Notes under the pieces: generated by a model | Databases searched by the model: none | Told to the model about the DNA's origin: nothing | What the model saw: the letters and a program-made list of their open reading frames with translations, nothing else | Source of the DNA: Escherichia coli | GTDB taxonomy: Bacteria > Pseudomonadota > Gammaproteobacteria > Enterobacterales > Enterobacteriaceae | NCBI RefSeq assembly: GCF_030013205.1 | Contig: NZ_CP122648.1 | Reading direction: 5' to 3' (one strand) | DNA: 64,000 nt | In this document: in pieces, positions 51,425 to 64,000 of the stretch | How positions within the stretch are numbered: position 1 is the stretch's first letter | Layout: each line of letters starts with the position of its first letter | Program-made: the position numbers and the translations under genes

Positions 51425-52564
51425 TTAGTACAGAGAGTGGGTGTTACGTTCAATATCTTCTTTGGTGATACGACCGAACATTTTCCAGTAACACCAGGCG
51501 GTGTAGAGCAGAATGATCGGTACCAGAACCACCGCAACCCAGGTCATGACGTTAAGTGTCAGCTGGCTGGAAGTTGCATCCCACATTGTCAGACTTGCGT
51601 TCATCATGGTGCTGGACGGCATCACAAACGGGAACATTGCGATACCGGCAGTCAGGATGATGCAGGCCAGCGTCAGGGAGGAGAACACAAACGCCCACGC
51701 GGCTTTATCCATACGTGCAGTCAGGATGGTCAGCAGCGGCAGAACCACACCCAGTGCCGGAATAGCCCACAGAATTGGCGTGTTGTTGAAGTTTACCAGC
51801 CATGCGCCAGCTTCACGAACCACTTCTTTATTCAGCGGGTTAGAGGCTGCGTAATGGTCCATTGTCGATTTCACGACATAACCATCGATACCGTACATCA
51901 CCCATACGCCAGCCAGTGCGAAGCAGACCAGTGTCACCAGTGCCGCCACCTGAGCCGTTGCACGGGTACGCAGGTGCAGTTCGCCCACGGTACGCATTTG
52001 CAGGTAAGTCGCGCCCTGAGTAATGATCATTCCTACGCTCACCACGCCAGCCAGCAGGCCGAACGGGTTAAGCAGCTGGAAGAAGTTACCGGTGTAGTAC
52101 AGACGCAGATATTCATCAACGTTGAACGGTACGCCCTGCAACAGGTTACCGAACGCCACACCAATCACCAGCGGCGGAACGAAGCTACCAATGAAGATGC
52201 CCCAGTCCCACATGTTACGCCAGCGGGTTTCTTCAATCTTGGAGCGGTAGTCAAAACCGACCGGACGGAAGAACAAAGATGCCAGCACGAGGATCATCGC
52301 CACATAGAAGCCGGAGAACGCAGCGGCATAGACCATCGGCCAGGCAGCAAAGAGTGCGCCGCCCGCGGTGATCAGCCAAACCTGGTTACCGTCCCAGTGT
52401 GGTGCAATGGAGTTAATCATAATTCGACGCTCGGTGTCGTTACGACCGAGGAAACGGGTGAGCATGCCCACCCCCATGTCGAAACCGTCAGTGACTGCAA
52501 AACCAATCAGCAGAACGCCAACCAGCAGCCACCAGATAAAACGCAATACTTCATAATCGATCAT
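51425..52564 (-). CDS. cydB: Cytochrome bd-I ubiquinol oxidase subunit II
   Basis: 379-aa polytopic membrane protein. Confidence 0.95.
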   Translation of the reverse strand: MIDYEVLRFIWWLLVGVLLIGFAVTDGFDMGVGMLTRFLGRNDTERRIMINSIAPHWDGNQVWLITAGGALFAAWPMVYAAAFSGFYVAMILVLASLFFRPVGFDYRSKIEETRWRNMWDWGIFIGSFVPPLVIGVAFGNLLQGVPFNVDEYLRLYYTGNFFQLLNPFGLLAGVVSVGMIITQGATYLQMRTVGELHLRTRATAQVAALVTLVCFALAGVWVMYGIDGYVVKSTMDHYAASNPLNKEVVREAGAWLVNFNNTPILWAIPALGVVLPLLTILTARMDKAAWAFVFSSLTLACIILTAGIAMFPFVMPSSTMMNASLTMWDATSSQLTLNVMTWVAVVLVPIILLYTAWCYWKMFGRITKEDIERNTHSLY

Positions 52565-52579
52565 TTGACGACTCCTGTC

Positions 52580-54148
52580 TTAGCGTGCCGGCTGAGTAGT
52601 CGTGGAAGACTGCTCAAAGTGATAGCGACCGGTTTTCAGGCTGCTTGGGCCGAGGCGTGCATACTTGAACATTAAGAACAATTCTGCCACCAGGAACAGG
52701 GTATACAGGCCGCAAATCAGCACCATTGAGAAGATGAGATCGCCTGCGGTCAGTGACGAGTTCGCCACAGCTGTCGGCAGCACTTCACCGATAGCCCACG
52801 GTTGGCGGCCATATTCAGCCACGAACCAGCCCGCTTCTACAGCAATCCACGGCAGCGGAATACCGTACAGCGCGGCGCGCAGCAGCCATTTTTTCTCGCC
52901 AATGCGGTTGCGGATGACACTCCAGAAAGAGAGCGCGATGATTGCCAGCAGCAGGAAGCCACACGCCACCATGATACGGAACGCGAAGTACAGCGGCGCT
53001 ACACGCGGAATGGAGTCTTTGGTTGCCTGTTGAATCTGCGCTTCAGTCGCATCCGCCACGTTTGGCGTATAGCGTTTCAGCAGCAGACCGTAACCGAGGT
53101 CTTTCTTCATGCTATTGAACTGGTCACGAACCGCCTGGTCGGTAGAACCAGAACGCAGTTGTTCGAGCAGAGAGTACGCCTTCATCCCGTTACGAATGCG
53201 TTCTTCATGCTGCACCATCAGCTCTTTCAGGCCGATAACCGGGGTATCCACGGAACGCGTTGCAATGATGCCCAGTGCGTAAGGGATCTGGATTGCAAAT
53301 TTGTTCGTCTCCTCTTCCTGATCAGGAATGCCGAACAGAGTAAAGGCAGCAGGTGCAGGTTGCGTTTCCCACTCGGCTTCAATAGCAGCCAGTTTGGTTT
53401 TCTGCACGTCGCCCATTTCGTAACCAGATTCATCACCCAGAACAATAACAGACAGAACGGCAGCCATACCGAAGCTGGCAGCGATAGCAAAGGAGCGTTT
53501 AGCGAAGGCGAAGTCACGACCTTTCAGCATATACCATGCGCTGATACCGAGGATGAACATCGCGCCAGTCACATAACCAGAGGCTACAGTGTGAACGAAT
53601 TTCACCTGAGCAACCGGGTTAAGCACCAGCTCGGAGAAGCTCACCATCTCCATACGCATAGTTTCAAAGTTGAAATCGGATGCGATTGGGTTTTGCATCC
53701 AGCCGTTCGCAACCAGAATCCACAGTGCGGACAGGTTTGAACCGAGCGCCACCAGCCAGGTGACACACATATGCTGAACTTTACCCAGACGATCCCAACC
53801 GAAGAAGAACAGACCTACAAAGGTGGATTCGAGGAAGAAGGCCATCAGACCTTCGATTGCCAGCGGCGCACCGAAGATATCCCCTACATAGTGGGAATAG
53901 TAAGACCAGTTAGTCCCGAACTGGAACTCCATGGTCAGACCGGTAGCCACACCCAGAGCGAAGTTGATACCAAACAACTTGCCCCAGAACTTGGTCATAT
54001 CTTTATAAATCTGTTTGCCGGAAAGGACGTAGACCGTTTCCATAATGGCCAGCAGGAACGCCATACCGAGCGTCAGTGGCACAAAAAGGAAGTGGTACAT
54101 CGCGGTCAAGGCAAACTGTAAGCGCGACAGTTCGACTATATCTAACAT
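52580..54148 (-). CDS. cydA: Cytochrome bd-I ubiquinol oxidase subunit I
   Basis: Start at [12 protein letters not shown] (522 aa), one codon inside the track ORF. Confidence 0.95.
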
Positions 54149-54953
54149 CATGACTCCTTGCTCATCGCATGAAGACTCCGAGAGTGAACCCCGTTAGAAA
54201 GGGTCACACGCATGCCCCAATACAAAATTATTTGCTCGCCTCTATCGTTGCCATTTCATCAAAAGAGGAAAAGACAATGATAAAAAAGTTACAAATATGT
54301 TAATGAATAAACCAAATTGATCCCGTAATTATATTACGCCGCAAAATCCTTACAATAAACAGGTTTTTATTGAGCAAATTTGCATTTTTCGACAGTGATC
54401 AATTTATAGCGAAATTGTCACGATCTCACCAATTTGATCTACGACAATTTATCGTGTTTTGCAGATTTTTTTCAAGAATTAAAAATTGATTTATATCAAA
54501 ACCAACCAAATATGTTAATTATGTATAAACCATAGATCATTGGTGATTTTATTGTTAATTTATTGTGAAATATTTATGCAACACAATTATTACAATGAAA
54601 AGGTATAGATAAAAAACCAGTGTTTTATTTAACAGAACCGCCTTATCCACTTTTTATAATACCAATTGATTAGATTAGCCAATTTGTTGCTATTTTACAT
54701 AACATATTTTTATCAAAGTTAATTGATTGTTGCGTTTATGAGCACCGGCCGTAAGCCCGTTATGTTATTGTTTCATTAGTAATAATCACTTAAATGTATC
54801 GATGAAACAGGTATGACTTAGCGGGAGTGATTGTTTCTGAGTGAACAGAGACCACTTTCGCCTGATAAATGAAAAATGAGCGATTTTTGCAAGTTAGTTT
54901 TTCTATAGCCGAGTACGCTCAGCGCCTCGCTTGATTACAATGAGGTTGCTGCT
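54149..54953. promoter_or_regulatory. Long AT-rich region upstream of cydA (cydAB control region) merging into accessory DNA
   Basis: About 800 bp of AT-rich non-coding DNA with TTGAT-containing motifs; cydAB is known to have a complex FNR/ArcA-regulated promoter. Individual sites not resolved. Confidence 0.4.
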
Positions 54954-55898
54954 ATGAGTCCTGATAATATCAGTTCTGCTGTCAATCGCTTCTCAGGTTG
55001 GCCATCTAATGATCCTCTAAAAACAGATAAAGAATCAATGACATCACCCATGACTGTGCAGGTAATAAAGATGATTGCCGCCATCCTTGACCCACATCGG
55101 ATAGTCGTTGGAATCGATACACTTTATACAACGCAGCGCGAAACATTTACCTCAGAGAGTCAACAGCTCATTGAATCAGCATTGCAAACACTTCATGTGA
55201 TGAATTTAAATAACCTGGAAACAAATCTCGATGAGGAAGGTCACTATCTGGCTTTTGGATATAACGTTGACACTCCTGACAGAATAACCGTTTCTGCTTA
55301 TAATGAAAAAAAGCCTGGCTGCTATGGCCAATGTCTTTTAATACAGGATGACGAAACAGACTTATTTAACCTGATAAAAGTTAAAATTTTTGAAGCCAGA
55401 CATAATTATGTCGCTCAATTGATGAGCGATCCGGAATTTATGTTCAAATTTAGTTATAGCGCTCAACAAAATAGATTAGAACCTCATCTTCTGGTTCCCA
55501 CTTATTTCCCTCTAAAAACAAACGAACCGGTTACGCAAGAGGATGTACTGTTACTTTATCGTTTCTTTAAAATGGATGGTGATTTTAATATATTAACATC
55601 AGATGAATACATGAGCATCATGACACCTCTGATGAAGTGTGAGCGCAGCATCCACGACCACAACAGGTATGTGACGGGCAAAGATACCCTTCTTCTGGAC
55701 TATCCTCCTTCTGGTAACCAGATATATTTCCATATTTTTCCTGACGAATCAGCAACACTAGTCCTTTATTTTTCAAACAATGACATTGAATGTTTCGTCT
55801 TTGAAAGAGATATTCCGAGCCAGTATCGCTTTTTCAAAATGTTTACCAATCTGGCACTGGTTATTGATCAGTTAACCGATGCCAATCAAATACTTTAA
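54954..55898 (+). CDS. Hypothetical protein (AT-rich accessory gene)
   Basis: 314-aa ORF with GAGG RBS; AT-rich codon usage unlike the flanking core genes; no motif recognised. Confidence 0.55.
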   Translation: MSPDNISSAVNRFSGWPSNDPLKTDKESMTSPMTVQVIKMIAAILDPHRIVVGIDTLYTTQRETFTSESQQLIESALQTLHVMNLNNLETNLDEEGHYLAFGYNVDTPDRITVSAYNEKKPGCYGQCLLIQDDETDLFNLIKVKIFEARHNYVAQLMSDPEFMFKFSYSAQQNRLEPHLLVPTYFPLKTNEPVTQEDVLLLYRFFKMDGDFNILTSDEYMSIMTPLMKCERSIHDHNRYVTGKDTLLLDYPPSGNQIYFHIFPDESATLVLYFSNNDIECFVFERDIPSQYRFFKMFTNLALVIDQLTDANQIL

Positions 55899-55978
55899 TT
55901 TTTATATATTCCCTGTGGCAAATATTGCTAAACAATGCCCGGGGATTAATTTTTATTACTCACGGAAAGATTTAAATA

Positions 55979-56401
55979 ATGATCCCATCTCAAATCTCTT
56001 TCAACACCCTTCCTGTCAATGCAACATACGCTTCAGAGACAACAGTTGACACACAAAAATTCTCTGACATCCTCTACTCAGCGGGGTGTTCCCTAAAGGA
56101 TCTGGCTTATCTGAGCAGATGTCTGGCATCAATACATCCGACTATCGCCAAAAACATTTATGAAACAGAAAATCTCAGCGATCAAAAATTACTACATATT
56201 GATTGCCGTAGTACAAATGAAATCAAGATAAATATCTTTTTTGGTCAACAACGAGAAGGATTAATTGAAATTAGTTCTGACACAGTCATTTTTTCGATAC
56301 TGTCTTCATTGATTGACTCCACCATTTCTAAATTTCAACACCAAAACCCCGTTAACGGTTCTGTAAATCCTGACCTATTGTATGAGGATTATACTGATTA
56401 A
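55979..56401 (+). CDS. Hypothetical protein (AT-rich accessory gene)
   Basis: 140-aa ORF immediately downstream, same strand, acidic C-terminus; no motif recognised. Confidence 0.5.
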   Translation: MIPSQISFNTLPVNATYASETTVDTQKFSDILYSAGCSLKDLAYLSRCLASIHPTIAKNIYETENLSDQKLLHIDCRSTNEIKINIFFGQQREGLIEISSDTVIFSILSSLIDSTISKFQHQNPVNGSVNPDLLYEDYTD

Positions 56402-56948
56402 ATCCCTCCTGTCGCGAAAAATGGCCTGCGTTATTGCCAGACGTAATAAAACTTTTGATTAACGTTTCTCGTACTGGTAGCACCTTCATGTACTTTTCTT
56501 TTTTACGAAAAATCAAAAGAGCTAACAAAGGTCATAATTCGCATGAATCATTAATTATTTGTTATTTTCAACATTATTTTTACATTAAGCAGAGATGAAT
56601 TGCTGTGAAATTCGACTTAACTTTTATGAAATGCATTTACTCATGGCTAAAGCCACGTCACAAAAATGCAAATTAGAAGTTGATCACAATTATCTCAATA
56701 CATCAAATCAAGTTAATTTTAAAAATTTAACATTCATGACATCAGTTGACATAACACACTGAATTAAAATGAGAATTTGAAAACACACTTTAAACAATCA
56801 TTTCCCGAAAGACATTTTGAAAATAGATCAATTGCAACATTACGGTCAGATAAAGACACTCCTGTGATATTAAACCTGTGCCGTTATGAACGGCCATAAA
56901 TACGACGTGTGTAACTTATTTTACTCTCTGTCTTACAAAGGATTACCC

Positions 56949-57398
56949 ATGAAGAAAGCAACACTTGTGATTGGCGTTATTGGCGCGGACTGCCATGCAG
57001 TAGGCAATAAAGTTCTGGACCGCGTTTTTAGCAACCATGGCTTCAGAGTCATTAATCTGGGCGTAATGGTCAGCCAGGACGAATATATTGATGCGGCCAT
57101 TGAAACTGGCGCTGACGCGATTGTCGTCTCCTCTATCTATGGGCATGGCGATATCGATTGTCTGGGCATGCGCGAACGCTGCATTGAGCGTGGGCTGGGT
57201 AACATCCTGCTCTATGTGGGCGGTAACCTGGTGGTCGGAAAACATGACTTCGCTGACGTGGAAACCAAGTTCAAAGAGATGGGATTTGATCGCGTCTTTT
57301 CCCCAAGTCATGACTTAGAAGATGTTTGTCAGCTGATGGCCCACGATATCAACCAACGTCATGACGTTGATACTCGCATTCTTGAAGAGGCAATCTGA
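56949..57398 (+). CDS. Glutamate mutase S (sigma) subunit, B12-binding
   Basis: Starts [23 protein letters not shown] (cobalamin-binding DxHxxG-type motif); about 149 aa; track ORF begins 21 codons upstream. Confidence 0.85.
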
Positions 57399-58786
57399 TG
57401 CAAATCGTCTCTGTCGATATTGGTTCGACGTGGACCAAAGCAGCCCTCTTCACCCGGGAGGGGGACGCGTTAACGTTGGTTAACCACGTTCTGACCCCAA
57501 CCACCACCCATCATCTGGCGAAGGGGTTTTTCTCCAGCCTGGACCAGGTGTTAAACGTAGATGATGCCCTCCCCCTGTTAAACAGTGGTGAGGTTGCATT
57601 GAAGTATTCCTCCTCTGCCAAAGGTGGGCTGGCGGTTGCCGCAATGGGATTGGTGCCTTCTATCACCCTGGAAACCGCGAAAGTAACCGCTCACTCTGCG
57701 GGTGCTAAAATTGCGCAATATTACGCCTACAAGCTGAACCGCCGTGATATCCAGGCACTGGAAGAAACGCAGCCCGATATTCTCTTGTTCACCGGCGGCA
57801 CCGATGGCGGAGAAGAAAGCTACGGACTGAATAACGCCCGTGTGTTGGCAGAATCCAAACTCGACTGCGCCATTATTTATGCCGGAAACCGGGATATTCA
57901 GGACGAGGTGCAGGAGGTCCTCGGGCATAAAGACCTGACCATCGTCGACAACGTTCTGCCCGATCTTGACCATCCGAACCCTTTAGCCGCACGCCAGGCT
58001 ATTTGCGACATATTCCTTAAACGCATCGTTAAAGGGAAAGGGCTGGATGTCATTGTTGATAAAACAGGCGAAGAACCAATGCCGACACCATGGACGGTCT
58101 TTGAACTGGTTAAGGCAATCAGTAACGTCGATCACAGCTGGAAAGAGTTCATGCTGATCGACATGGGCGGCGCAACCACCGATGTTTATTCCGCCTGTGC
58201 CAACACGCTCTCGCCCGACACCGTTCTACACGGCGTACCGGAACCCTTCGTGAAACGGACGGTGGAAGGCGATCTGGGAATGCGCGTCTCGGCAATGGTG
58301 GTTGGTGAAAGTGCGAAAGAGTTAGTCAATGTGAATTTTGCTCAGCAACCCGCACAGCTGGACGCTTTTTATCATTACCTCCGCCATCTAGTCGCTCATC
58401 CCGACTACTTACCCGCGAATGCAGAAGAAAAATATTTCGATACCGTCCTGGCCGGAGTGTGTGTGGGTTATGCCACCGAAAGACATGCGGGCACCAAAAA
58501 AGAGGTCTGCACCTGCGTCGGCAATGTCGATTTACAGATGGGACGTGATCTGACAACCGTGCGTAAAGTCGTGGGTTCCGGCGGATGGCTCTCGCGTGCC
58601 AGTCAGTTCGATATGCATCACTGGTTGAAATACCGCGAGTTAAACGACGACGGTAAACGCATTCTCTTACCGACCGAATTTGAATATTACCGCGATTCCC
58701 GGGGGCTATTACCACTGCTGGCAAACGTCGCCAGAGTCGATCCGCTGGCCGCCGCGCGCACCAGTATTCAATGCTTAACCCTATAA
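57398..58786 (+). CDS. Glutamate mutase accessory protein (GlmL/MutL-like)
   Basis: 462-aa ORF between the S and E subunit genes, the position of glmL in clostridial glutamate mutase operons. Confidence 0.75.
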   Translation: MQIVSVDIGSTWTKAALFTREGDALTLVNHVLTPTTTHHLAKGFFSSLDQVLNVDDALPLLNSGEVALKYSSSAKGGLAVAAMGLVPSITLETAKVTAHSAGAKIAQYYAYKLNRRDIQALEETQPDILLFTGGTDGGEESYGLNNARVLAESKLDCAIIYAGNRDIQDEVQEVLGHKDLTIVDNVLPDLDHPNPLAARQAICDIFLKRIVKGKGLDVIVDKTGEEPMPTPWTVFELVKAISNVDHSWKEFMLIDMGGATTDVYSACANTLSPDTVLHGVPEPFVKRTVEGDLGMRVSAMVVGESAKELVNVNFAQQPAQLDAFYHYLRHLVAHPDYLPANAEEKYFDTVLAGVCVGYATERHAGTKKEVCTCVGNVDLQMGRDLTTVRKVVGSGGWLSRASQFDMHHWLKYRELNDDGKRILLPTEFEYYRDSRGLLPLLANVARVDPLAAARTSIQCLTL

Positions 58787-58804
58787 CAATTAAGGCTGCA
58801 ATCA

Positions 58805-60250
58805 ATGGAACTTCGAAATAAGAAATTAACCCATGACGAATTCATGACCGAGCGGCAACAGGTACTGAAAACCTGGGAAACCGGCAAGGATGTTGAAAAC
58901 TTTGAAGATGGCGTTAAATACCAACAAACCATCCCTGAGCATAAACGCTTCTCTCTTGCGCTGCTGAAAGCAGACAAGGAAGGTAAAACCCTTAGCCAAC
59001 CGCGCGCAGGTGTGGCGCTGATGGACGAACACATCGAACTACTGAAAACACTACAAGAAGAGTGCGATCTGCTGCCGAGCACTATCGATGCATATACCCG
59101 TCTGAATCGGTACGAAGAAGCGGCTGTAGGGATTAAAAAATCCATCGAAGCCGGAACCTCTAAACTGAACGGTTTGCCGGTAGTTAACCATGGCGTCGCA
59201 GCTTGCCGTCGCCTCACCGAAGCCCTGCAAAAACCGCTACAGATCCGCCACGGCACGCCAGATGCGCGTCTGCTGGCTGAAATCTCGATGTCCAGCGGCT
59301 TTACCAGTTACGAAGGCGGCGGCATTTCCTACAACATTCCGTATGCCAAACGCGTAACGCTGGAAAAATCGATCCGCGACTGGCAGTACTGCGACCGTTT
59401 AATGGGGATGTATGAAGAACACGGGATCCGCATCAACCGCGAACCGTTTGGCCCACTAACGGGTACGCTGATCCCGCCGTTTATCTCGCACTCTATCGCG
59501 ATCATCGAAGGCTTGCTGGCGCTGGAACAGGGTGTGAAATCTATCACCGTTGGTTATGGACAGGTCGGCAGCCTGACGCAGGATGTTGCGGCGATCCAGT
59601 CTCTGCGTGAACTTGCACACGAATATTTTCAGAGCTATGGCTATACCGACTATGAATTAAGTACCGTGTTTCACCAGTGGATGGGCGGCTTTCCGGAAGA
59701 CGAATCGAAAGCGTTCGCTATTATCTCCTGGGGCGCAGCCGTCGCGGGGATGTCTGGTGCCACCAAAGTCATCACCAAAAGTCCGCACGAAGCCTGGGGT
59801 ATCCCGACTGCCGCTGCCAACATTCAGGGGCTGAAAGCCTCCCGCCAGATGCTCAACATGGTCAACGAGCAGAAATTCCCGCCGTGCCCTGCGGTTGAAC
59901 TGGAAATTGAACTGATTAAGAGCGAGGTTCGCGCAGTACTGAATAAAGTGTTCGAACTGGGTAATGGTGATATTGCGCGCGGTACGGTGCTGGCATTTGA
60001 AGCGGGCGTACTGGATGTGCCGTTTGCACCAGCCGCGTGTAACGCGGGCAAAATTCTTCCGGTCCGTGACAACACCGGCGCGATACGCGTACTGGAAGCC
60101 GGAGCCGTTCCATTGCCAAAAGATATTCTCGACCTCCACCACGATTACGTTGCTGAACGCGCACGCTTTGAAGGACGCCAACCGACATTCCAGATGGTTG
60201 TAGATGACATCAATGCTGTATCCCACAGTAAATTAATAGGAAGACCATAA
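58805..60250 (+). CDS. Glutamate mutase E (epsilon) subunit
   Basis: 481-aa ORF following the glmL-like gene; operon context. Confidence 0.8.
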   Translation: MELRNKKLTHDEFMTERQQVLKTWETGKDVENFEDGVKYQQTIPEHKRFSLALLKADKEGKTLSQPRAGVALMDEHIELLKTLQEECDLLPSTIDAYTRLNRYEEAAVGIKKSIEAGTSKLNGLPVVNHGVAACRRLTEALQKPLQIRHGTPDARLLAEISMSSGFTSYEGGGISYNIPYAKRVTLEKSIRDWQYCDRLMGMYEEHGIRINREPFGPLTGTLIPPFISHSIAIIEGLLALEQGVKSITVGYGQVGSLTQDVAAIQSLRELAHEYFQSYGYTDYELSTVFHQWMGGFPEDESKAFAIISWGAAVAGMSGATKVITKSPHEAWGIPTAAANIQGLKASRQMLNMVNEQKFPPCPAVELEIELIKSEVRAVLNKVFELGNGDIARGTVLAFEAGVLDVPFAPAACNAGKILPVRDNTGAIRVLEAGAVPLPKDILDLHHDYVAERARFEGRQPTFQMVVDDINAVSHSKLIGRP

Positions 60251-61491
60251 TGAAAATAAAACAGGCCCTGTTCACCGCTGGCTACTCCTCATTCTATTTC
60301 GATGACCAGCAGGCGATAAAAAACGGAGCGGGTCATGACGGCTTTTTTTATACCGGGGAGCCAGTAACACAGGGGTTTAACGCCGTACGTCAGGCCGGGG
60401 AGTGCGTATCGGTACAGTTGATTCTGGAAAACGGCGCGGTCGCCGTAGGTGACTGTGCTGCCGTACAGTATTCCGGGGCAGGTGGTCGCGATCCACTGTT
60501 CCTCGCGGAGCACTTTATTCCGTTCCTCAACGACCATATCAAGCCATTACTGGTAGGCCGCGATGTGGATACTTTCCTGCCGAATGCCCGTTTCTTCGAC
60601 AAATTGCGTATTGACGGCAACTTGCTGCATACCGCCGTGCGCTACGGATTATCACAGGCGCTGCTTGATGCTACCGCGCTGGCAACCGGCCGTCTGAAAA
60701 CTGAAGTGGTCTGTGATGAATGGCAGTTGCCACGCGTGGCGGAATCCATTCCATTATTTGGTCAGAGCGGCGACGATCGATATATCGCCGTCGATAAGAT
60801 GATCCTTAAGGGCATCGACGTGCTGCCCCATGCACTGATTAATAACGTCGAAGAGAAACTGGGCTTTAAAGGTGAAAAACTGCGCGAATATGTCCGCTGG
60901 CTGTCGGATCGTATTCTGAGCAAGCGCACCAGCGCACGCTACCACCCTACCCTGCACATCGATGTATACGGCACTATCGGTCTGATCTTCGATATGGATC
61001 CGCTTCGCTGTGCGCAATACATCGCCAGCCTGGAAAAAGAAGCGCAAGGCCTGCCGCTCTACATTGAAGGTCCGGTCGATGCCGGTAACAAGCCCGATCA
61101 AATTCGCCTGCTGACCGCGATTACCAAAGAGCTGACGCGCCTCGGTTCCGGCGTGAAACTAGTGGCCGATGAATGGTGTAACACCTACCAGGATATTGTT
61201 GATTTCACCGATGCCGCCAGTTGCCACATGGTGCAAATCAAAACCCCGGATCTGGGCAGTATTCACAACATCGTCAATGCAGTTCTTTATTGCAACAGCC
61301 ACAGCATGGAAGCGTACCAGGGCGGCACCTGCAATGAAACTGATGTCAGTGCCCGCACCTGTGTCCACGTCGCCCTTGCCGCTCGCCCCATGCGTATGCT
61401 GGTAAAACCAGGGATGGGCTTTGACGAAGGCCTCGATATCGTCTTCAACGAAATGAATCGTACTATCGCGCTGTTGCAGGCTAAGGATTAA
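60250..61491 (+). CDS. 3-methylaspartate ammonia-lyase
   Basis: 413-aa enolase-superfamily-size ORF immediately after the mutase genes, overlapping the glmE-like stop. Confidence 0.8.
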   Translation: MKIKQALFTAGYSSFYFDDQQAIKNGAGHDGFFYTGEPVTQGFNAVRQAGECVSVQLILENGAVAVGDCAAVQYSGAGGRDPLFLAEHFIPFLNDHIKPLLVGRDVDTFLPNARFFDKLRIDGNLLHTAVRYGLSQALLDATALATGRLKTEVVCDEWQLPRVAESIPLFGQSGDDRYIAVDKMILKGIDVLPHALINNVEEKLGFKGEKLREYVRWLSDRILSKRTSARYHPTLHIDVYGTIGLIFDMDPLRCAQYIASLEKEAQGLPLYIEGPVDAGNKPDQIRLLTAITKELTRLGSGVKLVADEWCNTYQDIVDFTDAASCHMVQIKTPDLGSIHNIVNAVLYCNSHSMEAYQGGTCNETDVSARTCVHVALAARPMRMLVKPGMGFDEGLDIVFNEMNRTIALLQAKD

Positions 61492-61494
61492 CAA

Positions 61495-62865
61495 ATGGCT
61501 CGTTCTTTTAAAGTCTTATCGCCTACGGCAATCCTCGGGTATGGATTCCCGGAGGAGAGCTTCCGCAAAGCGATGGCAGAATCGCCCGATCTGATCGCCG
61601 TTGATGCTGGCTCTTCCGATCCTGGCCCCCACTACCTCGGGGCGGGCAAACCGTTTACCGATCGCGCAGGGGTCAAGCGCGATCTGCGCTATATGATCAC
61701 CGCAGGCGTGCAAAATAATATACCGGTGGTGATCGGAACGGCCGGCGGTTCTGGTGCCGCTCCACACCTGGAGTGGTGCCGAGAAATAATTCATGAGATT
61801 GCCCGGGAAGAGCACCTCTCGTTCTCGATGGCGCTGATCCCGGCAGACGTTGACAAAGCCATCGTCCACCAGGCGCTGGATAACGGCAAAATCACGGCGC
61901 TGGATTTTGTCCCGCCGTTAACCCACGACGCGATTGACGAAAGTACGTATATCGTCGCGCAAATGGGCATCGAACCCTTCCAGCAGGCGCTGAAAGAAGG
62001 CGCGCAAGTGGTGCTGGGCGGGCGCGCTTACGACCCGGCCTGCTTTGCTGCGCTACCGATCATGCAAGGCTTTGATGAAGGTCTGGCGCTGCATTGTGGG
62101 AAAATCCTTGAATGCGCGGCAATCGCCGCAACGCCCGGCTCAGGCTCTGACTGTGCGATGGGCATCATTGATGACAACGGCTTTACGCTGAAGACATTTA
62201 ATCCGAAGCGTAAATTTACCGAAACGTCAGCAGCTGCACACACACTGTATGAGAAATCCGATCCCTACTTCCTGCCAGGACCTGGCGGCGTGTTGAACCT
62301 GAAAAGCTGCACATTTAAAGCGGTCAATGACGGCGAAGTGTACGTCAGCGGTTCTAAGCATGAAGAAACGCCGTATTCCCTGAAACTGGAAGGTGCGCGA
62401 CGGGTGGGCTTCCGCTGTCTGACCATCGCCGGAACGCGCGACCCGATCATGATCGCCGGGATCGATAAAATCATCGATGAAGTCAAAACCAGCGTTTCGC
62501 GTAACCTGTCGCTCGACGATGACAGCATTCACATCAATTTCCACCTGTACGGCAAAAACGGGGTGATGGGCGACCATGAACCGATGCAAACTGCCGGGCA
62601 TGAGCTGGGGATTGTCCTTGATGTAGTTGCACCGACCCAGGAAATTGCCAACAGCGTTTGCTCGCTGGTGCGCTCTACCATGCTGCACTACGGCTATGAA
62701 AACCGCATCGCTACCGCAGGTAATCTGGCGTTCCCGTTCTCCCCTTCTGATATTCAGGGCGGGCCGGTATACGAATTTTCCATATATCACCTGATTGAAG
62801 CCAACGACGCTCTGCGTTTTGATTTCCATATTGAACAGGTGACGCCAGAAGGAGTTCAGGCATGA
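61495..62865 (+). CDS. DUF1446 / AtuA-like protein, function unknown
   Basis: 456-aa ORF 3 bp after the ammonia-lyase gene; family assignment recalled, not verified. Confidence 0.6.
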   Translation: MARSFKVLSPTAILGYGFPEESFRKAMAESPDLIAVDAGSSDPGPHYLGAGKPFTDRAGVKRDLRYMITAGVQNNIPVVIGTAGGSGAAPHLEWCREIIHEIAREEHLSFSMALIPADVDKAIVHQALDNGKITALDFVPPLTHDAIDESTYIVAQMGIEPFQQALKEGAQVVLGGRAYDPACFAALPIMQGFDEGLALHCGKILECAAIAATPGSGSDCAMGIIDDNGFTLKTFNPKRKFTETSAAAHTLYEKSDPYFLPGPGGVLNLKSCTFKAVNDGEVYVSGSKHEETPYSLKLEGARRVGFRCLTIAGTRDPIMIAGIDKIIDEVKTSVSRNLSLDDDSIHINFHLYGKNGVMGDHEPMQTAGHELGIVLDVVAPTQEIANSVCSLVRSTMLHYGYENRIATAGNLAFPFSPSDIQGGPVYEFSIYHLIEANDALRFDFHIEQVTPEGVQA

Positions 62866-63061
62866 AACAGTCAATTGTCTCACTGGCGCAAGTCATTCGT
62901 TCGAAAAATGCCGGACCTTACGAACTGGTTTTAGATATTTTATTTAAAACCAAAGAAAACTATGAGCGAGTCAAATCATCAGGGCAATTAACCCCAGAAC
63001 TGATTGGGTGATGCTGCCAACTTACTGATTTAGTGTATGATGGTGTTTTTGAGGTGCTCCA

Positions 63062-63337
63062 GTGGCTTCTGTTTCTATCAGCTGTCCCTCCTGTTCAGCT
63101 ACTGACGGGGTGGTGCGTAACGGCAAAAGCACCGCCGGACATCAGCGCTATCTCTGCTCTCACTGCCGTAAAACATGGCAACTACAGTTCACTTACGCCG
63201 CCTCTCAGCCCGGTACGCACCAGAAAATCATTGATATGGCCATGAATGGCGTCGGATGTCGCGCCAGTGCACGCATTATTGGCGTTGGCCTCAACACGAT
63301 TTTCCGCCACTTAAAAAACTCAGGCCGCAGTCGGTAA
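63062..63337 (+). CDS. insA: IS1 InsA
   Basis: 91 aa [43 protein letters not shown] (zinc finger). Confidence 0.93.
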
Positions 63338-63759
63338 CCTCGCGCATACAACCGGGCAGTGATGTGATTGTCTGCGCTGAAATGGACGAACAGTGGGGCT
63401 ACGTCGGTGCTAAATCACGTCAGCGCTGGCTGTTTTACGCGTATGACAGGATGCGGAGGACGGTTGTGGCGCACGTCTTCGGTGAACGCACTCTGGCCAC
63501 ACTGGAGCGTCTTCTGAGCCTGCTGTCGGCCTTTGAGGTCGTGGTATGGATGACGGATGGCTGGCCGCTGTATGAATCACGCCTGAAGGGAAAGCTGCAC
63601 GTTATCAGCAAGCGTTATACTCAGCGCATTGAGCGGCATAACCTGAATCTGAGACAACATCTGGCAAGGCTGGGACGGAAGTCACTGTCGTTCTCAAAAT
63701 CGGTGGAGCTGCATGACAAGGTCATCGGGCATTATCTGAACATAAAACACTATCAGTAA
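63256..63759 (+). CDS. insB: IS1 InsB frame (expressed as InsAB' by -1 frameshift)
   Basis: 167-aa frame overlapping the insA 3' end; A-run slippery site before the insA stop. Confidence 0.9.
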
Positions 63760-64000
63760 GTTGGAGTCATTACCACTGATTGCGCGCTTATATCATGTTG
63801 AACCTGACTTTATTCACCGTATTGTCTGGTTTGATCCTTCTAACGCAGTAAAAATCGTCATGCCACGAGATATTATCTCCGGGAATGTAGGTGACAATGA
63901 TGTCTATGGTGCACAGCAACATGCACCTTTATTAAATATGAGTTTCGATTTGTAAAAATCCGAATACTTTTAGCCAACTGACATCCCGTCACTTATTGCA

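Follow-up and report, generated by a model that had tools for sequence, protein, structure and literature searches.

IS1 splits the small-subunit gene of a probable citramalate lyase in the methylaspartate island of Escherichia coli ETEC4079

Results and Discussion

The two genes that follow the 3-methylaspartate ammonia-lyase gene mal in the pig strain E. coli ETEC4079 very probably encode (S)-citramalate lyase (cmlA and cmlB), and the IS1 element that splits cmlB most likely leaves this lyase inactive in the strain. The window analyzed here is a 64-kb part of the ETEC4079 chromosome, the record of which is a closed circle. The gene pair had been called uncharacterised in an earlier note on this DNA, a description that has to be withdrawn since its products match the deposited citramalate lyase CmlAB. 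CmlAB is an already known enzyme with a recently solved structure and represents no new biology, and the insertion is an ordinary strain-specific knockout that is already annotated by RefSeq.

The insertion in cmlB

The features of the operon around the insertion are as follows.

56949..57398, + strand: glmS, methylaspartate (glutamate) mutase subunit S (NCBIfam NF002612, 252 bits; RefSeq)
57398..58786, + strand: glmL, mutase accessory/reactivating protein (NCBIfam TIGR01319, 890 bits; RefSeq)
58805..60250, + strand: glmE, methylaspartate mutase subunit E (NCBIfam TIGR01503, 863 bits; RefSeq)
60250..61491, + strand: mal, 3-methylaspartate ammonia-lyase (Pfam MAAL_N/MAAL_C; TIGR01502, 542 bits)
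61495..62865, + strand: cmlA, probable citramalate lyase large subunit (DUF1446/AtuA family), intact, 456 aa
62862..63006, + strand: cmlB 5' fragment, codons 1-48 plus 1 nt (RefSeq pseudogene "DUF4387 family protein, missing C-terminus")
62999..63006: target-site duplication, left copy, ACTGATTG, 8 bp
63007..63774, + strand: IS1 element, 768 bp, in operon orientation (sequence, RefSeq)
63775..63782: target-site duplication, right copy, ACTGATTG, 8 bp
63783..63955, + strand: cmlB 3' fragment, rest of codon 49 to stop (RefSeq pseudogene "missing N-terminus"; Pfam on the rejoined ORF)

The full island order is glmS-glmL-glmE-mal-cmlA-cmlB-gltP-(...)-fumD-cobO, with fumD lying just outside the window. 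Every neighbor of cmlAB is a methylaspartate-pathway gene in the RefSeq annotation of the island, and the pair is linked in ETEC4079 to mal and to the glutamate mutase and class I fumarase (mesaconase) genes. The mal stop codon (61489-61491) and the cmlA start (61495) are separated by a 3-bp spacer preceded by the Shine-Dalgarno sequence AAGGA, and the cmlA stop codon (62863-62865) shares a 4-bp overlap, ATGA, with the cmlB start at 62862; both junctions are as the earlier note had given them. An AT-rich leader of 547 bp lies before glmS. Neither a cobalamin riboswitch nor another RNA element was matched in this leader or the rest of 52000-64000 (Rfam, E ≤ 0.1).

The inserted element is a complete IS1, as shown by its length, its short target duplication, its imperfect terminal inverted repeats (ends GGT...ACC, identical at 19 of 23 positions) and its insA/insB' arrangement with a -1 frameshift at an A6C motif. 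The motif lies at 63313-63319, insA spans 63062-63337, and the insB' frame ends at 63759. The left end of the element occurs once in the window, with 0 expected in shuffled sequences. The element differs from the usual family pattern in its duplication, which is 8 bp here compared to the more usual 9 bp, since the ninth base is A and the terminal base of IS1 is C. When IS1 and one 8-bp copy are taken out, the two halves of cmlB join in frame as an ORF of 318 nt (105 aa), and removal of 9 bp instead loses the frame. Therefore, the range of 8-9 bp suggested before can be narrowed to 8 bp. That IS1 splits the second gene was seen correctly, but the break lies one base into codon 49, so that 48 codons are complete and not about 47. 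In its present form, the 5' fragment runs into IS1 and reaches a stop at 63009-63011. The C-terminal half resumes after the element, as had been described, with the 3' fragment starting at 63783. In RefSeq, the two pseudogene halves stand on either side of an IS1 transposase. The rejoined CmlB matches the intact gene region of the sister strain ETEC4067 at 100% (tblastn), and the cmlB flanks of sister strains are likewise 100% identical and free of IS1.

Only about 150 records match the IS1 variant found in cmlB at 99% identity or more. The best matches among those listed come from swine strains, and copies that are 100% identical occur mostly in swine E. coli. A lineage-typical IS1 copy has transposed into codon 49 of cmlB.

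Identity of the gene pair

CmlA is matched by the Pfam family AtuA/DUF1446 (PF07287) at 74 bits, against a cutoff of 22.8, and the rejoined CmlB by DUF4387 (PF14330) at 134 bits, which upholds the domain assignments made earlier. Much closer matches were found among solved structures. CmlA is identical to 9erq_A at 417 of 456 positions (91%, E = 4e-290), and rejoined CmlB to 9erq_B at 88 of 104 (85%, E = 5e-57). Chains A and B of PDB 9ERQ and 9EVF, present together in both entries, are named "Citramalate lyase subunit A (cmlA)" and "B (cmlB)", and the entries are titled "Citramalate lyase - AMPPNP - citramalate complex" and "Citramalate lyase - ADP - pyruvate complex". The predicted folds of both subunits superpose on these deposits. 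The 9erq_A sequence is 100% identical to the product of the gene directly after mal in a Klebsiella michiganensis locus with the same gene order.

The activity of CmlAB is assigned from these deposition titles and from one preprint using an enzyme received as a gift, both concerning orthologues. This 2026 preprint uses the Raoultella planticola enzyme, with both subunits expressed, as a CoA-independent lyase that yields pyruvate and acetate, and an acetyl-CoA auxotroph given this enzyme and FumA shows mesaconate-dependent growth (bioRxiv 10.64898/2026.01.16.699985). Judged by its sequence, the E. coli orthologue probably shares this activity. Current database names trail the deposited structures: NCBIfam has no model for CmlA or CmlB, Pfam offers the family names above, and RefSeq uses "acyclic terpene utilization AtuA family protein" and "DUF4387", while some homologues are called "3-methylaspartate ammonia-lyase".

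Compared with the solved CmlAB, whose sequence is identical to the K. michiganensis DSM 25444 protein, the ETEC4079 pair has the same two-gene build of DUF1446 and DUF4387 and the same position after mal. It differs in that the orthologous DUF4387 gene is present but split, so that no intact adjacent small subunit is found. The ETEC4079 locus is a disrupted member of the CmlAB-type lyases and not a different family.

The IS1 break point lies within helix 45-51 of CmlB, which folds as a single compact domain. Ten residues of CmlB are invariant across homologues of 38-77% identity, and the break divides this set: K72, R77, D88, Q93, Q94 and P97 are all encoded by the 3' fragment. IS1 leaves the conserved RSKNAGP strand of the N-terminus on one fragment and the invariant loop of the C-terminus on the other. 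CmlA and all other island genes are intact, but a complete small subunit cannot be made. Since no complete CmlB is expected, the lyase is most likely dead in ETEC4079 and the route would stop at citramalate. We infer that loss of CmlB abolishes citramalate lyase activity, and the earlier suggestion of an inactive pathway extension in ETEC4079 is a reasonable one and most likely correct. The knockout may carry no physiological cost.

Distribution and synteny

To see how the pair is placed in other genomes, the 80 closest cmlA loci, drawn from many phyla, were compared. Among them, the gene directly upstream of cmlA is mal in 75 of 77 loci and the gene directly downstream is cmlB in 75 of 76; glmS, glmE and mal occur together in 63 of 67. 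These loci span Enterobacterales, Betaproteobacteria, Riflebacteria, Spirochaetes and others, and the eight-gene island order is kept across Enterobacterales. In a Holophagaceae locus that has no mutase genes, cmlAB adjoins a split class I fumarase. Co-function with the mutase and ammonia-lyase operon, as proposed earlier from the gene junctions, is borne out by this linkage well beyond E. coli, and is explained by CmlAB being the enzyme after mesaconase in the pathway.

Within the species, the pair is carried by about 21% of complete E. coli genomes. It is matched in one place over at least 80% of its length, at 98-100% identity, in 1121 of 1125 genomes with the pair. The IS1 insertion described here was seen in ETEC4079 only. 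One other genome has cmlB reduced to a 127-bp remnant, and in four more, IS1 has independently damaged the distal half of the operon at other places. A hotspot for IS1 in the distal operon was considered and rejected: five independent events among about 1125 genomes is roughly at or below the number expected by chance with a median IS1 count of 11 per 5-Mb genome.

Alternative explanations

The most serious alternative is that, in E. coli, the whole island is cryptic or silent, in which case the split of cmlB would be neutral decay of an unused operon with no phenotype. We regard this as possible, though the less likely reading. Kronen and Berg (PMC4682846) saw neither growth of O157:H7 on glutamate nor methylaspartase activity under all conditions tried, and the distal IS1 damage and the cmlB remnant in other genomes point the same way. 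However, the same authors cite earlier work in which methylaspartase activity was reported to be widespread among enterobacteria. In addition, nearly all carriers match the pair over most of its length in one place and the gene order is conserved across Enterobacterales, which argues for purifying selection. A functional pathway might also survive in ETEC4079 if CmlB were accessory or regulatory and CmlA alone cleaved citramalate. CmlA is intact and carries most of the family-wide invariant residues, yet this reading is improbable given the near-constant pairing of cmlB with cmlA, the relatives of 530-735 aa in other lineages that have DUF4387 fused at the C-terminal end of DUF1446, the co-crystallization of both subunits in 9ERQ and 9EVF, the invariant residues of CmlB, and the use of both subunits in the preprint.

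The database names would make CmlA an AtuA-type terpene enzyme or a second methylaspartate ammonia-lyase, and the Pfam AtuA match fits the former. Both ideas are contradicted by the data and were rejected on gene context and domain content. The island lacks the remaining atu genes (geranyl-CoA carboxylase, hydratase, dehydrogenases); CmlA has no MAAL_N/MAAL_C or enolase-superfamily domain, the MAAL domains being in the upstream mal product; and the ammonia-lyase label was called unexplained by Kronen and Berg (2015; PMC4682846). Moreover, the closest solved relative of CmlA was crystallized with citramalate and with pyruvate. It is just as hard to credit that IS1 in cmlB is a misplaced repeat. 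The ETEC4079 genome has about 20 IS1 copies, and repeats are a classic source of misassembly, but the closed chromosome holds a full-length element within a perfect 8-bp duplication, and its flanks rejoin exactly in frame, which is the signature of transposition.

Comparison with known systems

The classical citramalate lyase of Clostridium tetanomorphum is a CitDEF-like complex with an acyl-carrier subunit (EC 4.1.3.22; PMC4682846). CmlAB is predicted to catalyze the same reaction, from (S)-citramalate to pyruvate and acetate, at the same end of the methylaspartate pathway. In contrast to the classical enzyme, CmlAB binds AMPPNP or ADP, and the island has neither an acyl-carrier subunit nor the activation genes citC/X/G. 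No homology of CmlA or CmlB to CitD, CitE or CitF was found in Pfam, which returned just AtuA and DUF4387, or in NCBIfam. In the PDB comparison, the only strong neighbors of the two subunits were their own deposits, with no fold relation to the classical lyase. The fold and subunit make-up of CmlAB appear unrelated to those of the acyl-carrier-dependent enzyme.

AtuA, from acyclic terpene utilization in Pseudomonas and Thauera, shares PF07287 with CmlA, with DUF4387 as a partner domain, and in its proposed reaction a tertiary beta-hydroxy acid likewise gives off acetate (PMC4847356). It differs in genomic context and in its proposed substrate, a CoA ester (HIHG-CoA). An atuABCDEFGH-type cluster with geranyl-CoA carboxylase is not found at the ETEC4079 locus. 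The Thauera AtuA homologue is listed as a single 615-aa protein (PMC4847356), which falls in the size range of the DUF1446-DUF4387 fusions; the fusions scanned for domains are 33-46% identical to CmlA. A further described system is the glutamate-fermentation cluster of E. coli O157:H7 (PMC4682846). It is the same island, FumD mesaconase included, with 98.5% DNA identity over cmlAB, but there cmlAB is uninterrupted.

Pathway and mechanism

In the proposed route, GlmS and GlmE, with GlmL and the CobO adenosyltransferase, would convert glutamate to 3-methylaspartate, which Mal would deaminate to mesaconate. The class I fumarase FumD, shown to be a mesaconase by Kronen and Berg (2015; PMC4682846), would hydrate mesaconate to (S)-citramalate. 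CmlAB would then cleave citramalate to pyruvate and acetate, using neither CoA nor an acyl-carrier prosthetic group. Kronen and Berg noted the DUF1446 gene after mal as being of unknown function and called the fate of citramalate "unclear". When cells were grown on citrate, acetate or propionate, they detected no activity of citramalate lyase, and these cells had high activities of citrate lyase, isocitrate lyase and methylcitrate synthase (their methylcitrate-pathway marker), respectively. CmlAB fills the step that was missing from their enterobacterial pathway. ETEC4079 is predicted to be unable to complete the pathway and its sister strains able to do so; with ETEC4067, it forms a naturally occurring near-isogenic pair in which the contribution of the pathway in the pig gut could be tested.

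CmlAB appears to bind an adenine nucleotide beside its substrate. Our preferred reading is that the nucleotide serves a transient acyl-phosphate-type activation or another cofactor role, with no net ATP hydrolysis. More tentatively, ATP could transiently phosphorylate the C4 carboxylate of citramalate, the acyl phosphate could act as an electron sink like the classical thioester, and acetyl phosphate, or acetate with regenerated ATP, could be released. If this were true, all of the DUF1446-DUF4387 family, with AtuA and the CoA-transferase III fusions among its members, would form a class of acetate-releasing C-C lyases with a new mechanism. In that case, ETEC4079 could serve, beside its isogenic sister ETEC4067, as a cmlB-null control provided by nature.

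Polarity of IS1 on gltP-fumD-cobO is possible, and the route might then stop before citramalate. Scans of promoter and terminator consensus sequences bearing on this gave counts no higher than in shuffled sequences, and a convincing terminator was seen only after cobO.

Gene order and features of the island

Over the 3 kb surrounding the gene pair, the sequence matches the closed E. coli ETEC4079 chromosome (NZ_CP122643.1) at 100% identity; this strain was isolated from pig faeces in Belgium. The accessory island that carries cmlAB sits between cydAB and sucABCD. It comprises, in order, two short hypothetical genes, glmS, glmL, glmE, mal, the DUF1446/AtuA gene (cmlA) and the DUF4387 gene (cmlB), followed past the window end by a dicarboxylate/amino-acid:cation symporter, a class I fumarate hydratase (fumD), cobO and a divergent LysR regulator. 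All island genes besides cmlB are annotated intact. The ORF list and the raw sequence both bore out the 3-bp and overlapping junctions that had been claimed downstream of mal.

mal: 60250-61491
cmlA: 61495-62865, 456-codon ORF after a 3-bp spacer
cmlB: start at 62862, overlapping the cmlA stop as ATGA
IS1: 63007-63774, 768 bp, GGT...ACC ends, terminal inverted repeats matching at 19/23 positions
insA of IS1: 63062-63337
A6C frameshift motif of IS1: 63313-63319; the insB' frame is also present
perfect 8-bp direct repeat ACTGATTG flanking IS1: 62999-63006 and 63775-63782

The GC content of cmlB (62862-63006 and 63783-63955) is 0.39, compared to 0.55 for the overlapping cmlA and 0.49-0.55 for the other operon genes.

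The gene pair encodes citramalate lyase

Pfam placed the large protein in AtuA/DUF1446 (74 bits) and the rejoined small protein in DUF4387 (134 bits), while the NCBIfam profile search returned no model for either. The family assignment in the earlier note was thus correct, but its description of the genes as uncharacterised was not upheld by a PDB sequence search. The large protein matched 9erq_A/9evf_A (E = 4e-290, 417/456 identical) and the small protein matched 9erq_B/9evf_B (E = 5e-57, 88/104 identical), chains named by the depositors 'Citramalate lyase, subunit A (cmlA)' and 'subunit B (cmlB)'. The entry released on 2025-10-22 bears the title 'Citramalate lyase - AMPPNP - citramalate complex', and the one released on 2025-10-08 is titled 'Citramalate lyase - ADP - pyruvate complex'. 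As a sequence match this is decisive, and it settles the identity of the pair as the citramalate lyase CmlAB. CmlAB is already a known enzyme through these depositions and its use in a preprint; the Pfam, NCBIfam and RefSeq names are not yet updated.

The enterobacterial cluster was described by Kronen and Berg (2015), who showed that FumD is an efficient mesaconase (PMC4682846). At that time, the function of the DUF1446 gene downstream of mal was unknown. No citramalate lyase activity was found in citrate-, acetate- or propionate-grown cells. Citrate lyase activity was high in the citrate-grown cells, isocitrate lyase in the acetate-grown cells and methylcitrate synthase (a marker of the methylcitrate pathway) in the propionate-grown cells. 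In the authors' conclusion, 'the fate of (S)-citramalate ... is still unclear' (PMC4682846). In the preprint, the enzyme was a gift of the Berg laboratory expressed as cmlAB, and together with FumA it allowed an acetyl-CoA auxotroph to grow on mesaconate (bioRxiv 10.64898/2026.01.16.699985).

Citramalate lyase is a heteromer of the cmlA and cmlB products and works without CoA or acyl-carrier genes. It was crystallised with citramalate and an ATP analogue, and also with pyruvate and ADP. The E. coli orthologue would be expected to catalyse the same reaction, which would complete a route from glutamate through methylaspartate, mesaconate and (S)-citramalate to pyruvate and acetate. The active site is probably lined by the family-invariant residues, namely the D37-x-G-S-x-D-x-G-P loop, H91, R177/D180, H200-x-G-K-x-x-E-C207, H249...Y-E-K254 and N410. 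For AtuA, which gave the family its name, a role in releasing acetate from 3-hydroxy-3-isohexenylglutaryl-CoA has been tentatively assigned (PMC4847356); if so, both enzymes would break the same kind of bond in a tertiary beta-hydroxy acid. In the preprint, cleavage was expected to become unfavourable at high acetate (bioRxiv 10.64898/2026.01.16.699985), which argues against net ATP hydrolysis. With low confidence, we favour a catalytic or cofactor role for the nucleotide, possibly in transient acyl-phosphate activation.

Conservation of the pair

One genome per species was scanned for cmlA, and the 80 closest loci (60-99% identity) came from Enterobacterales, Betaproteobacteria, one alphaproteobacterium, Riflebacteria, Spirochaetes, Lentisphaerae, Oligoflexales, Aminicenantes and Holophagaceae. 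Neighbours were counted by tblastn with the island proteins, using only loci with enough flank. The pair does co-occur with mutase operons in other genomes: mal lies immediately upstream of cmlA at 75/77 loci, cmlB immediately downstream at 75/76, and glmS, glmE and mal are all present at 63/67. A FumD-like class I fumarase was found at 42 of 60.

One exception, a Holophagaceae MAG (L084, 9633-13764), lacks mutase and mal genes within 10 kb; there, cmlAB precedes a 323-aa ORF with no annotation and a class I fumarase split into Fumerase and Fumerase_C. This arrangement looks like a stand-alone mesaconate-to-pyruvate module. An Accumulibacter MAG (L056, 10001-11676) carries cmlAB at 68% and 53% identity next to an outer-membrane efflux protein and a 4-alpha-glucanotransferase; mutase, mal and fumarase genes are absent within 10 kb.

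In distant relatives, DUF4387 is joined to the DUF1446 C-terminus in proteins of 530-735 aa, and these fusions support the view that the two domains are obligate partners. In the metagenomic protein P0355 (1096 aa), DUF1446 and DUF4387 are naturally fused with a family III CoA-transferase, which hints that some family members act on, or pass their product to, CoA esters.

IS1 insertion into cmlB and its consequences

The earlier note had placed the IS1 split after about 47 codons with an 8-9 bp duplication; the exact values are codon 48 and 8 bp. Removal of IS1 and one 8-bp repeat joins the halves in frame as a 318-nt ORF (105 aa), and removal of 9 bp instead loses the frame. By tblastn, the rejoined CmlB is 100% identical to the intact gene region of the sister strain ETEC4067, whose flanks are also 100% identical to the window. 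Both halves are already labelled pseudogene fragments in RefSeq. The coordinates, the in-frame rebuild, the ETEC4067 match and this annotation confirm the split.

CmlB is modelled as one compact alpha/beta domain, in which the break would fall inside helix 45-51. The 5' fragment retains the RSKNAGP strand (R13, K15, N16, D25), and the 3' fragment holds K72, R77, D88, Q93, Q94 and P97. Since no complete subunit can be made and the pair is present in a single copy in the genome, ETEC4079 has likely lost lyase activity. The suggestion that the pathway extension may be inactive in this strain was therefore sound, as was the earlier reading overall.

IS1 insertions are classically polar, and within the island a strong terminator-like site was seen only after cobO, so the symporter, fumD and cobO may be expressed at a lower level. 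The phenotypic cost of the knockout may be small, since Kronen and Berg failed to induce the O157:H7 cluster (PMC4682846). IS1 has turned cmlB into a pseudogene in this one strain, an ordinary event that RefSeq already records. Its remaining value lies in annotation transfer and in the pairing of a natural cmlB-null strain with one that is isogenic.

Distribution of the insertion and other IS1 lesions

The pair is present in 1125 of 5426 complete E. coli genomes, in 1121 of which a match at a single location covered at least 80% of the pair's length. Among complete E. coli genomes, this cmlB insertion occurs in ETEC4079 only. The flanks are 100% identical but free of IS1 in many swine ETEC/O139 relatives, and 100%-identical copies of the same IS1 variant were found mostly in swine strains among the matches listed (about 13-22 copies per chromosome there). 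Together, these comparisons point to a recent jump from within the lineage.

Independent IS1 lesions affect the distal half of the operon in four further E. coli genomes, with IS1 in the orientation of the operon in all four:

VE-T9 (L003): break in cmlB near codon 30, and a rearrangement further downstream
EC2641 (L004) and 14EC033 (L086): symporter truncated; a deletion runs across fumD and cobO and reaches into the LysR gene
E200086 (L085): simple IS1 insertion at about codon 68 of fumD

An IS1 hotspot in the distal operon was considered and rejected, as the number of lesions is not above a rough expectation from IS1 copy number.

Other observations in the window

The two hypothetical ORFs at the island head, 54954-55898 (314 aa) and 55979-56401 (140 aa), have a GC content of 0.37-0.38 and no match in Pfam or NCBIfam. 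Among the fetched loci, they occur only in sequences close to E. coli, namely two loci from MAGs (96-99% identity) and one Escherichia sp. locus, where the larger ORF has 50% identity, and they are absent from other enterobacterial island copies. The 547-bp leader upstream of glmS, the first gene of the B12-dependent mutase operon, is AT-rich (56402-56948, GC 0.32), and an Rfam search found neither a cobalamin riboswitch nor another family at E <= 0.1. From position 1 to about 18900, a P22-like prophage adjoins ybhC, with portal, capsid, tail needle, antirepressor, Arc-family and integrase/excisionase genes and several lysis and transglycosylase genes annotated as partial.
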